A stretch of 64,000 nucleotides of DNA from positions 106,789 through 170,788 of the forward strand of contig JABXKD010000001.1 in NCBI GenBank assembly GCA_013375475.1, written 5' to 3'. The notes under the pieces are model-generated. The model was not told where the DNA came from. It did not search any database and saw only the letters and a program-made list of their open reading frames with translations. A program made the translations under genes and the position numbers. The DNA comes from Promethearchaeota archaeon. Its GTDB lineage: Archaea; Asgardarchaeota; Lokiarchaeia; Sigyniarchaeales; SOKP01. Below are positions 3-38,287 of the stretch, piece after piece. The number at the start of each line of letters is the position of its first letter. Position 1 is the first letter of the stretch.

Positions 3-1064
3 CTTAAAATATCCATTCAATGGTTTGTCAACGGAATCAAGGGATATCAAATATTTGACAACGGAAAATATACTCATAGGTTTGGAGAAGAAATAGAAAA
101 CGCTGATTTAACAATTAAATTCGCAGATGAAGAGATAGCCTTGAGGTTTTTGAAAGGAAATTTAGAAAGGCACACGTATGTGTATTATAGGCGCAAATTT
201 AAGTTATACTCAATCGAAAAAGAGGAAAAGATCGAAAAAGATTCGAAGTCCGTAACAATACGCCATAGAAGACTTTTTTTAACAGCTTATTTTACCAAGA
301 GTATCTTTTATCATCCGTCATTTTTAACCAGATTTCCTCTTTTTAGAGAAATTGCTACAAGGCATTCAGAACCAGAAAATTCGTTCGGTTCTTACATTCC
401 CATAAATGCATCCTTAGGTAAATTTGAAAATCAATTAATGCCTGAAAAAATGCTTGAACACTTTATTAAAAAAGCCAAACATTTTTACGTCCAAAACGCA
501 TGTGGGTGTAGAGTTTTTCACGATTGCCAAGATCACGATAAAAAATTTGCGTGTATGTACATAGGCGACGATGTCCCTACAATAAAACTACCTCCATCAA
601 TGGGGCACTCTATTACTCAAGAAGAAGCGTTAACTTACGCAAAAGATGCTATAAAAAACGGATTAGTTCCTACTTTTGGTAGAGCTCCTGGTGAAACAAA
701 TGCGATAGGCGCGGTAGATACGGGACACATTATGTCTATATGTTATTGCTGCCCATGTTGCTGTCTTAACGGAAAGATCGCTAAATATGCTACTCGAGAA
801 ATTCAGATGTTCACCAGAATGGAGGGTTTGACAGTTGAAGTTGACCCAAGTATATGTAATGGCTGTGGAACTTGCTTAGATGTCTGTGTTTTCGTCGGCA
901 GAGATGTAATCAACGGTAAGGCAGTCATTGACCAAGAACGGTGCCTAGGTTGTGGCCGTTGCGAACAAGTATGTCCTAACGACGCAATAACGATTAAGAT
1001 TGACGATCCAAAAAGAGTTGTCGAACATATACAGAGACTAGAAGAAAGTGTAGATGTCTCTTAA
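3..1064 (+). CDS. SCP2-like/Cys-rich 4Fe-4S protein, paralogue 1 (5'-truncated by window edge)
   Basis: Frame is open from nt 3 (LKISIQWFVNGIKGYQIFDNGKY...) and continues into the 141..1064 ORF; motifs CGCR-x4-C-x2-H-x5-C, CYCCPCCC and two CxxCxxCxxxC. Confidence 0.85.
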   Translation, partial: LKISIQWFVNGIKGYQIFDNGKYTHRFGEEIENADLTIKFADEEIALRFLKGNLERHTYVYYRRKFKLYSIEKEEKIEKDSKSVTIRHRRLFLTAYFTKSIFYHPSFLTRFPLFREIATRHSEPENSFGSYIPINASLGKFENQLMPEKMLEHFIKKAKHFYVQNACGCRVFHDCQDHDKKFACMYIGDDVPTIKLPPSMGHSITQEEALTYAKDAIKNGLVPTFGRAPGETNAIGAVDTGHIMSICYCCPCCCLNGKIAKYATREIQMFTRMEGLTVEVDPSICNGCGTCLDVCVFVGRDVINGKAVIDQERCLGCGRCEQVCPNDAITIKIDDPKRVVEHIQRLEESVDVS

Positions 1065-1119
1065 AATTAACAATCGAAATTTTTAATTACAGAAATTAAA
1101 TCATAATAGGAGAAAAAAA

Positions 1120-2322
1120 ATGAAGAAAAAAAATAGTGAAATTGAGAAATTAATTAAAAAAATATTAGTAGATTTAGAGGATTTTACTAAGACTGATGAG
1201 TTTTATAAAGAAGATATGAAAGATATGTCGTTTCGAATCCAGTGGAAAATCTGTGGATATGATTTCTATCAGATATTCGAGAAGGACCGGTATGAACATA
1301 AATTTGGGGGCATTCTGCCCGACCCAGATTTTTCACTAACCATCAGAAACGAGGAATCTGCGATTAAATTCTTAAAAGGAGAATTGTTAGGCGGGAGATA
1401 TGCTTCCCGTAAAGACTATAATGGCAGGTTTAAATTCGTTGAAAGATTAGGATGGGCCACGATCAAAACAGAGGATGGAGAAAAAAAGAGACCTGTAGAA
1501 AAATATTTCATGACTGCAAAATTTGATCCAGAAAAAAAATACCATCCGCTTACTCTAACAAAAATACCAACCTTTCGACTCTATAGACAATCGAAAAGTT
1601 CTCCTAGGCCTGAACGCGTAGGTAATGCAGCCTACATCCCTATTAATAAATTTGTGGGTGAGCACGAAAATACAATAATCCCTCTAAAAGTGTTTGAACA
1701 TTTTTTAAGCAAAGCTTCTGTCATTGTTATGGAGGATATTTGCGGATGTCGACATTATAGAGAGTGCGAAAATCACGATGTTTCTATTGGATGTATGCAT
1801 ATTGGACAAGACATGCTGAAACGCGATCTTCAAGATTTAGAGCCGGGTATGCCAGAAGACGTACCAGGAAGATTAGCAACAAAAGAGGAAGCTATAGAAC
1901 GTGTACGACTTGCCTACGAAAATGGATTAATGCCATTACTAGGGAAGGGTGGAATGGAGGGGCAAGGCGGTCCGAATACAGGCAAACTAATGTCAATGTG
2001 TTTTTGCTGTCCCTGCTGTTGTGTAAATGGTATTGTTACGAGGAATGCAACTTCAGCTCTTAAATTATTTAATCGGATGGAAGGTTTGCATGTTGAAGTC
2101 GACAGAGATGTCTGCGTGGGATGCGGAGAATGCGTGGAAGTCTGTGCGTTTATGGGAATGGATATGATAGATGGAAAAGCAGAAGTTAACCAAAGACGCT
2201 GCCTAGGGTGTGGTAAATGCGAAATTGCATGTCCAAATGACGCCATTTCAATATATTTCGACGATCCAAGTCGCGTTGACGATTTTATCAACACATTAGA
2301 CTCTGTTGTTGATGTTTCGTAA
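1120..2322 (+). CDS. SCP2-like/Cys-rich 4Fe-4S protein, paralogue 2
   Basis: N-terminal IQWKICG..YQIF..PDFSLTI module; CGCR, CFCCPCCC, 2x[4Fe-4S] ferredoxin motifs; AGGAG RBS. Confidence 0.85.
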   Translation: MKKKNSEIEKLIKKILVDLEDFTKTDEFYKEDMKDMSFRIQWKICGYDFYQIFEKDRYEHKFGGILPDPDFSLTIRNEESAIKFLKGELLGGRYASRKDYNGRFKFVERLGWATIKTEDGEKKRPVEKYFMTAKFDPEKKYHPLTLTKIPTFRLYRQSKSSPRPERVGNAAYIPINKFVGEHENTIIPLKVFEHFLSKASVIVMEDICGCRHYRECENHDVSIGCMHIGQDMLKRDLQDLEPGMPEDVPGRLATKEEAIERVRLAYENGLMPLLGKGGMEGQGGPNTGKLMSMCFCCPCCCVNGIVTRNATSALKLFNRMEGLHVEVDRDVCVGCGECVEVCAFMGMDMIDGKAEVNQRRCLGCGKCEIACPNDAISIYFDDPSRVDDFINTLDSVVDVS

Positions 2323-37119: not shown

Positions 37120-37171
37120 AATTTAAGATAATCTATATATTTTGTATAATAAAACGAAATGGTTTTTAATA

Positions 37172-38287
37172 ATGAATGAATCAGAAGATAGAGTTTATAG
37201 AGCGCTCCAGGAAAGTCTGGACAAATTGCCTATTAGTTATCCTGCTACCGAATCCGGAGTAGAGATAAGAATTTTAAAGCGGTTATTTTCTCCAGAAAAA
37301 GCGTTAATTGCATCCAAGTTAGAGTTTTATCCTAAACCTTTGAATAAGATTTATGCTAAACTTGAGAAGAACGGCGTTCCACTTGAGGGCGTCGAAAAAG
37401 CACTTGACGAGATGTTTGATGATGGATTAATCGGCCGTGCTATAAAAAGGGATGGCGAAGAGGAAATTAAGATTTACGCAGCATCTGCTTTTATTCTAGG
37501 ATTTTACGAATTTCAGATGAATAAGATGACAGAGGAATTTATTCACGATGTAGATCAATATTTTGAAGAAGCGTATATGGAGGAGCTTAATAAAACAAAA
37601 ATTCCCCAATTGAGAACGATTCCTATTGAGAAAGAAATAGGTATAGATAGGGATATTGCTAATTACGATGATTTTCGGCATTACCTCGACACTTGCGGTG
37701 AGCCCATCGTATTAAACGAGTGCATTTGTCGAAAGAAGAACGATATAATTGGTAAAAGTTGTGAAAAAACGGATTTGAGAGAGTCTTGTTTTAGTTTTCG
37801 TTCAGCGGGGATGGCCTATATAAATAGAGGTTTAGGACGCATAATTACTAAGGATGAAGCGCTTGAAATTATAGAACAGGCGGAAAGAGAGGGATTAGTT
37901 CTTCAAGCAGGAAACTCTCAAAGACCAGCCTCTCTTTGTACGTGTTGCGGTTGTTGTTGTAATCTTTTGGTTAACGAGAAGAAATTTGATGCCCCGGCGC
38001 AATTTTTTGGCTCAAATTATTTTGCTCAAGTGGATCAAGAGCTTTGTACTGGCTGTGGTGTGTGCGAAACGCGTTGTCAAATGGACGCAGTAGAAATTAT
38101 TGACGATATATCCAATATAATCTTGGATAGATGTATCGGATGTGGAGTTTGTGTTCCCACTTGTCCAGAAGAGGCGATCAAGCTAATTGAGAAAGAAGAA
38201 AAAACGATACCAGCAAAGAACACGGTGGCAACATATTTAAAAATTGCGGAAGAAAGAAAGAAATTAGAACAAACAGAATCAAGCTGA
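37172..38287 (+). CDS. Cys-rich 4Fe-4S protein with winged-helix-like N-terminus, paralogue 16
   Basis: YRALQESLDKLPISYPATESG; CICR; CTCCGCCC; two ferredoxin motifs; same subtype as 11425. Confidence 0.82.
   Translation: MNESEDRVYRALQESLDKLPISYPATESGVEIRILKRLFSPEKALIASKLEFYPKPLNKIYAKLEKNGVPLEGVEKALDEMFDDGLIGRAIKRDGEEEIKIYAASAFILGFYEFQMNKMTEEFIHDVDQYFEEAYMEELNKTKIPQLRTIPIEKEIGIDRDIANYDDFRHYLDTCGEPIVLNECICRKKNDIIGKSCEKTDLRESCFSFRSAGMAYINRGLGRIITKDEALEIIEQAEREGLVLQAGNSQRPASLCTCCGCCCNLLVNEKKFDAPAQFFGSNYFAQVDQELCTGCGVCETRCQMDAVEIIDDISNIILDRCIGCGVCVPTCPEEAIKLIEKEEKTIPAKNTVATYLKIAEERKKLEQTESS

Follow-up and report, generated by a model that had tools for sequence, protein, structure and literature searches.

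A clustered family of cysteine-rich iron-sulfur proteins with divergent SCP2-like modules and an embedded HypA paralogue in a Promethearchaeota archaeon

Layout and age of the gene cluster

We analysed a stretch of 64,000 nucleotides (nt) from a Promethearchaeota archaeon (assembly GCA_013375475.1, contig JABXKD010000001.1, positions 106,789 to 170,788 of the forward strand; G+C content approximately 36%), referred to below as the window, which contains a cluster of 16 paralogous genes for a modular family of iron-sulfur (Fe-S) proteins and, embedded among them, a gene for a paralogue of the nickel metallochaperone HypA. An earlier note, made from the DNA letters alone, had placed 16 paralogues at positions 3-38287, 11 of them with an N-terminal module, and both counts hold: all 16 open reading frames (ORFs) are present, and they fall into four architectures, with nine copies carrying one N-terminal module that resembles sterol carrier protein 2 (SCP2), two carrying two such modules, three short copies having no module and two having an alternative N-terminus. 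The single-module copies are located at 3-1064 (its 5' end lies beyond the window, with the start 94 nt upstream), 1120-2322 (400 amino acids (aa), the protein modelled below), 2430-3614, 3641-4807, 6781-7959, 8062-9270, 25628-26830 and 35902-37119 on the + strand, and at 17037-18203 on the - strand. Both double-module copies, at 26939-28555 (538 aa, modules in tandem) and 31246-32895 (549 aa), are on the - strand, as are the three short copies, each 285 aa long and consisting of core and ferredoxin domain only (30318-31175, 33666-34523 and 34671-35528), while the copies with the alternative N-terminus of approximately 140 aa are at 11425-12507 and 37142-38287 on the + strand. At 3-9270 six copies are co-directional, and the sole interruptions of this tandem array are a putative cyclase/hydrolase gene (PF04199; 4840-5505, + strand) and a BNR-repeat gene. 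Two ORFs of 157 aa, at 8724-9197 (-) and 17086-17559 (+), lie antisense to two of the family genes, over the part encoding the Cys-rich and ferredoxin domains, and are probably shadow frames of conserved coding sequence rather than genes.

The array is real and not an assembly artefact, since an independent 17.9-kb contig from a public sequencing run matches positions 1-12045 of the window with 0 differences, and the array DNA is also present in three further marine-sediment runs (two studies in all); no RNA run is listed among the public runs holding this DNA. A profile of the core domain described below found four more matches upstream of the window on the same contig, giving 20 on the contig and 33 in the genome, the highest number seen (0-16 in 41 related genomes). 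The core is not restricted to this genome, as 38 of the 41 relatives have matches, including all 24 other genomes of the genus. The N-terminal module has a patchy distribution: it is found in 6 of the 25 genomes of the genus, with 19 matches here and two to five in each of the remaining five, and none of 16 genomes from other genera of the order has it. Identity between paralogues is only 23-50% for most pairs, rising to 62% for the copies at 25628 and 35902 and to 76-79% among the three short copies, and metagenome proteins include a separate counterpart, 56-100% identical, for each of the 14 copies that lack the alternative N-terminus. A recent tandem burst was therefore rejected, and by sequence comparison the cluster is a long-maintained multigene family of old copies. 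The "massive local expansion" of the earlier note thus stands as far as the 16 clustered copies and the four further upstream matches are concerned, but not as a recent event. Frequent tandem duplications have been reported for Asgard genomes (PMC13247210); the main text of that paper makes no mention of Fe-S, ferredoxin or SCP2, and its Supplementary Data 3 might list the array.

The cysteine-rich core and its N-terminal domains

Alignment of the 16 sequences showed 18 invariant cysteines, ten of which are located in a core of approximately 155 aa and eight in the ferredoxin domain that follows. The core cysteines are arranged as C-x-C-x5-C-x8-C and, some 70 residues on, C-x-C-C-x-C-C-C, corresponding to C208, C210, C216, C225, C294, C296, C297, C299, C300 and C301 in the protein encoded at 1120-2322. 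The motifs that had been picked out from the sequence (IP(I/V)N, CxCR-x4-C-x2-H-x5-C and GLxPxxG(R/K)) are present as described, although the histidine of the second varies among the 16 copies, and the altered spacing noted for two copies corresponds to a longer spacer after the CxC in the pair with the alternative N-terminus. All ten core cysteines are also invariant in an alignment of 90 sequences that includes distant bacterial members, so the pattern is not due to chance; of the 148 top representatives that were read, 125 keep CxCCxCCC, and most of the remainder are short and probably partial.

The eight C-terminal cysteines form two CxxCxxCxxxC motifs, invariant in 16/16 copies, and were correctly described before as a canonical 2x[4Fe-4S] domain: matches above the cut-off to PF00037, PF12838 and relatives were found in all eight of the 16 copies that were scanned against Pfam (E≤0.1). 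This was the sole region recognised by Pfam in those copies or by NCBIfam in the five scanned, with no model covering the core; a sequence search of the PDB gave matches confined to the ferredoxin domain, a PDB search with a core-only profile gave nothing (best E-value 0.28), and a fold search of the core matched no solved structure, Hdr structures being among those searched. The absence of a curated family or solved relative agrees with the view of the earlier note that these ten or so cysteines have no established function. Several candidate identities were rejected. PF04015, the DUF362 family after which NCBI names some homologues, was not among the Pfam matches of any of the eight copies, PF01370 is absent from the window copies scanned despite the JGI label "UDP-glucose 4-epimerase", and Pfam lends no support to the homologue names "DUF362", "ATP-binding protein" and "IOR alpha"; likewise, there was neither a sequence nor a fold match that would make the core a relative of the HdrB CCG, ferredoxin:thioredoxin reductase (FTR) or RnfB "FeS" domains.

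The full-length AlphaFold2 (AF2) model of the 1120-2322 protein (pLDDT 86.7, pTM 0.82) has the N-terminal module at residues 1-145, a linker, the ten-cysteine core at approximately 168-322, the 2x[4Fe-4S] domain at 323-380 and a C-terminal helix, and a model of the core alone (pLDDT 80.6) places the cysteines at the strand ends of an alpha/beta domain. A predicted and hitherto undescribed alpha/beta domain with ten invariant cysteines is shared by every member of the family, along with the 2x[4Fe-4S] ferredoxin-type domain.

We expanded the search for the core to a library of 1.84 billion proteins clustered at 50% identity, which gave 1211 representatives at E≤1e-3, 314 at ≤1e-10 and 46 at ≤1e-30. 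Most of these are 260-300 aa long, corresponding to core plus ferredoxin domain without any N-terminal domain, and this short form is the commonest architecture outside Asgard archaea; accessory N-terminal domains are lacking in most bacteria, and one or two divergent SCP2-type modules are found in these Asgard-type archaea. Named archaeal homologues come from Lokiarchaeota/Promethearchaeota, Thorarchaeota and Hodarchaeota. A pattern scan of reference genomes, which is not a census, returned at least 120 stretches, of which about 100 are chance matches outside the family and at least 19 are loci with true members; the taxa among the loci listed include Actinomycetota, Desulfobacterales, Syntrophaceae, Anaerolineales, Chloroflexia, Spirochaetota and Acidobacteriota. 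Taken together, the core occurs in Chloroflexota, Desulfobacterota, Actinomycetota, Acidobacteriota, Spirochaetota and Asgard-type archaea. In the ESM Atlas the nearest clusters to the core are unnamed and mostly from Chloroflexota (score 0.90), which we use as leads only. The core is fused behind a NAD-dependent SDR domain (Epimerase/3Beta_HSD) in Desulfatibacillum (P0267, 587 aa) and in a Desulfobacterales metagenome-assembled genome (L066), and such fused forms probably seeded the epimerase label carried by many homologues; the Desulfatibacillum fusion (WP_073477693 / ACL04231) stems from a cultured organism. At three bacterial loci two family genes flank an ORF of approximately 90 aa without known family (L114:3250-3519, L090:1216-1491 and L029:3366-3644), and at the last of these an additional ORF of 236 aa also lies between two family genes.

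The N-terminal module had been read as an SCP2-type fold, and this holds for part of its length. Its profile aligned by hhalign with 18 PF02036-matching SCP2 proteins from the same genus and order with 94.5% probability (E-value 7.4e-8, 85 columns), and Foldseek matched the full model to AF1534, a "putative sterol carrier protein 2" (3bn8_A; E-value 3.9e-4, probability 1.0, target TM 0.52, root-mean-square deviation 2.8, 30% identity over 84 columns covering part of the module only), and more weakly to the SCP2-like domain of the alkylsulfatase Pisa1 (2yhe). Against the PDB the module profile gave weak matches to 3bn8 (E-value 0.006) and 3cnu (E-value 0.038), and ESM Atlas searches with the module (scores 0.76-0.77) returned some clusters with SCP2 or Alkyl_sulf_C, again as leads only. 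However, none of the 13 N-terminal modules matched the SCP2 model PF02036 at E≤10, none of the nine PF02036 matches in the genome falls within a family gene, and the similarity is limited to the N-terminal helix and the sheet, ending at approximately residue 95, after which the predicted structure of the single-module copies is a long beta-hairpin in place of the C-terminal helices of SCP2. These comparisons support the module being a divergent, remodelled SCP2 homologue over its first 90 or so residues. Among the nine single-module copies, mean pairwise identity rises from 32% in the module to 48% in the core and 55% in the ferredoxin domain, making the module the fastest-diverging part, a pattern that fits a specificity module.

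Canonical stand-alone SCP2 genes are abundant in these organisms, with three to 12 per genome in all 21 genomes searched; the nine of this genome are located on contigs C212 (three in a row), C110, C266, C233, C248 and C231, and in relatives stand-alone SCP2 genes are also found beside family genes (G002:C148 and G008:C26). According to PMC12139934, strain MK-D1 has one SCP-2 homologue.

The alternative N-terminus is unrelated to the SCP2-like module, and the "winged-helix" label given to the two copies that carry it found no support: no winged-helix or helix-turn-helix family was detected, Pfam gave PCI at E-value 0.005 in one copy and nothing in the other, and the best PDB match was unrelated (E-value 0.23). 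Every genome of the genus contains many copies of this kind, and they are divergently oriented beside operons of short copy, HypA and double-module copy, both here and at loci L141, L142, L163 and L170, which is a typical position for a regulator. Hence the family could consist of redox or ligand sensors, with the core sensing redox state or metal and the variable N-terminus serving for output, which in the "winged-helix" copies would be DNA binding, or for binding a lipid signal. We consider this very improbable, as the alternative N-termini contain no detectable DNA-binding family, most members of the family have no N-terminal domain at all, and a 2x[4Fe-4S] wire with ten further cysteines is heavy equipment for a sensor.

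A HypA paralogue among the family genes

The HypA gene, which was absent from the earlier note, is located at 32954-33403 on the - strand and encodes 149 aa with a full-length match to PF01155 (E-value 3.1e-25, 88.8 bits versus a cut-off of 28.9) and a match to the Thermococcus kodakarensis HypA 3a43 (E-value 2.8e-16). Across 25 sequences the MHE motif, C73 and C76 are invariant, and at least 90% keep C126 and C129. The gene is co-directional with both flanking family genes, the short copy at 33666-34523 upstream and the double-module copy at 31246-32895, which follows directly, 59 nt downstream, and it adjoins no hydrogenase or other hyp gene: the other HypA of this genome, which is ordinary and shorter, as well as the two [NiFe]-hydrogenase large-subunit genes and the HypB-type genes, are all on other contigs.

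A metagenome scan with the HypA protein gave 34 loci whose HypA is closely related (72-93% identity) and 22 where it is only distantly so (32-43%). Family ORFs are present at 32 of the 34 close loci, the two exceptions being contigs of 1.2 and 1.7 kb, and at none of the 22 distant ones. Gene order was mapped for 19 of the 34 close loci, and in the 18 with room downstream the gene after HypA is an N-module gene in 13, a short copy in two and a GFO/IDH/MocA oxidoreductase gene in three. At one locus (L168:1065-1510) the reading frame of the HypA variant is lost towards the 3' end and its translation contains stops, either through a sequencing error or because the copy is broken. A complex prediction that paired HypA with the core plus ferredoxin region of the double-module protein scored 0.00, controls not having been run, and so speaks neither for nor against binding.

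A rival reading, to which we give serious weight while leaning against it, is that the linkage reflects inherited gene order, with no functional significance, and that the family holds Fe-S clusters only. This would be consistent with the origin of the 34 loci, which come from related organisms and partly from shared sampling projects and are not independent, with the bacterial members, where HypA is adjacent in only one of 19 loci among the matches listed, and with five relatives that have N-module genes without the HypA paralogue, three of them having an ordinary HypA only and two having none that was found. On the other hand, gene order around HypA is shuffled between loci while HypA remains embedded among family genes, and the adjacency recurs on an unrelated 3.2-kb bacterial contig, where HypA is directly upstream of a 484-aa family member. 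Furthermore, the flanking double-module proteins share 45-69% identity with those of the window in the locus-derived rows (32-69% over all 28 rows), and maintenance of the linkage at such protein identity suggests a function.

Interpretation, gene neighbourhood and known systems

With moderate confidence, we interpret the family as modular, low-potential Fe-S oxidoreductases that would act on hydrophobic or acyl substrates and may depend on nickel, that is, multi-cluster Fe-S oxidoreductases with accessory substrate-binding domains, a function that we infer. The two ferredoxin clusters would let electrons in or out and connect to at least one metal site formed by the ten core cysteines, where the chemistry would take place, while the SCP2-like module would hold a hydrophobic substrate (lipid, isoprenoid or acyl-CoA-type). 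Each paralogue may have its own substrate, as is suggested by the faster divergence of the N-terminal module, and fusion of the core to an SDR domain fits an enzyme better than a plain carrier. The dedicated HypA paralogue may take part in the maturation of the short and double-module copies, which would suggest nickel as well as iron in the Cys-rich site of at least these members. Within this reading the core has a substantial chance of being a metallocofactor site of a categorically new kind. The further step, that the ten-cysteine domain holds a new Ni-Fe-S or otherwise non-standard cofactor, matured by HypA, wired by [4Fe-4S] clusters and fed by the SCP2-like module, and so represents a new class of anaerobic metalloenzymes, is tentative and on balance doubtful.

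Several observations weigh against the oxidoreductase interpretation. The family has no studied member, and no cofactor, substrate or activity is on record; for want of a detectable core relative whose function is known, the word "catalytic" is itself inferred. With PF02036 failing to match the modules and SCP2 similarity giving way to a predicted beta-hairpin at about residue 95, a lipid tunnel is putative. The non-independence of the HypA loci, the single bacterial adjacency and the relatives without the paralogue all count here as well, and HypA paralogues could serve a role other than nickel delivery. Finally, the bacterial neighbourhoods are heterogeneous, with no conserved partner in 50 ORFs from 14 of the 19 loci.

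The neighbouring genes named in the earlier note were confirmed as encoding an acyl-CoA dehydrogenase (ACAD)-like protein, an AMP-binding ligase, an Abhydrolase_3 protein, a beta-lactamase-type esterase and a DUF1295 (steroid-reductase-like) protein; the AMP-binding, acyl-CoA-ligase-type enzyme is encoded at 38327-40180 on the + strand, adjoining the last family gene. Similar genes recur at the related HypA loci, where 36 neighbouring ORFs include five AMP-binding ligases, four GFO/IDH/MocA proteins, three MFS proteins, two Abhydrolase_3 proteins, one nitroreductase and one methylmalonyl-CoA mutase, so that the recurrent neighbours match the context in the window itself. At the bacterial loci, electron-transfer flavoprotein (ETF), CoA-transferase and thiolase genes are among the neighbours, with ETF genes beside two members, and a PF04199 gene also adjoins one bacterial member. 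The ACAD-like gene in the window and the ETF genes beside these two members would also suit a role as electron carriers or adaptors, in which the proteins, acting like polyferredoxins, would connect acyl-CoA dehydrogenase/ETF-type enzymes with an acceptor, and the SCP2-like module would provide docking to membranes or lipophilic partners. The Fe-S motifs are after all the only recognisable ones, and the SCP2 proteins UbiT and UbiJ reportedly hold lipophilic quinone intermediates for Fe-S partners. We nevertheless regard a carrier role as unlikely, because ten invariant cysteines in a separate alpha/beta domain, an SDR fusion and a dedicated HypA would all be unusual for a carrier, and 16 diverged copies in which the N-terminal module changes fastest fit substrate specialisation better.

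Other genes in the window include a fusion of a ferredoxin domain and a nitroreductase at 18440-19258 (+), between family genes, and an Opp/Dpp/Nik-type ABC transporter adjoining the cluster at 41212-50342, which comprises an SBP_bac_5 binding protein (-), a TetR regulator, two permeases and two ATPases with oligo_HPY; transporters of this type carry peptides or nickel. Further downstream are genes for an AIM24-family protein (53372-54085), a methylmalonyl-CoA mutase large subunit (59895-61568) and a DUF389 protein (61939-62952). The ORFs at 9287-11311 (-, 674 aa), 29808-30302 (+, 164 aa), 40238-40963 (+, 241 aa) and 50415-51437 (+, 340 aa) gave no Pfam match at the applied thresholds.

The family matters beyond this genome. 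The core is common, with 1211 representatives even after clustering at 50% identity, yet it has no curated family or structure and carries misleading database names; defining the family would correct thousands of annotations even if its chemistry proved ordinary. Ten invariant cysteines with a ferredoxin wire and a private HypA make a concrete, testable case for a new metal cofactor, and fusion to an SCP2-type domain bears on the handling of lipids and other hydrophobic compounds by anaerobic Asgard archaea, and so touches on ideas about the origin of eukaryotes. A new class of anaerobic metalloenzymes, if that reading is true, would occur widely among bacteria and archaea of sediments and would have diversified in relatives of the ancestor of eukaryotes.

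When the parts are compared with known systems, the ferredoxin domain, HypA and the relationship to SCP2 each represent a known kind; the literature searched provided no description of the core, of the full architecture with its SCP2-Fe-S fusion, or of a HypA paralogue linked to such a cluster. Dense cysteine motifs, including CxC, beside a ferredoxin-type wire are known from the HdrB CCG domain, from FTR and from the A-cluster of acetyl-CoA synthase with its Cys-Gly-Cys nickel site, but none of these gave a Pfam match at E≤0.1 or a fold match to the core. Polyferredoxins and HdrA (FwdF, 5t5i; HdrA, 5odc) resemble the C-terminal 60 or so residues in sequence and fold, but have no counterpart of the ten-cysteine core. 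Compared with SCP2 proteins (PF02036; AF1534 of Archaeoglobus fulgidus, 3bn8/3cnu; Pisa1, 2yhe), the N-terminal module has an alignable helix and beta-sheet, but it stays below the Pfam threshold and differs beyond residue 95, where the hairpin is predicted instead of the C-terminal helices. As an accessory domain fused to a catalytic part, SCP2 is familiar from alkylsulfatases and from SCPx/MFE-2; here the part to which the module is fused is putatively catalytic. In O2-independent ubiquinone biosynthesis, the SCP2 proteins UbiT and UbiJ are said to act with the [4Fe-4S] proteins UbiU-UbiV, the lipid holder presenting a hydrophobic substrate to an oxygen-sensitive Fe-S enzyme; UbiU and UbiV belong to the U32-peptidase family and have no sequence relation to the core, their SCP2 partner is separate rather than fused, and the comparison implies no quinone pathway. 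Lastly, the HypA paralogue resembles the HypA of [NiFe]-hydrogenase and urease maturation (3a43) over its full length, including the MHE motif and both CxxC pairs, but differs in being a second copy that is embedded among the family genes, away from hydrogenase and hyp genes.

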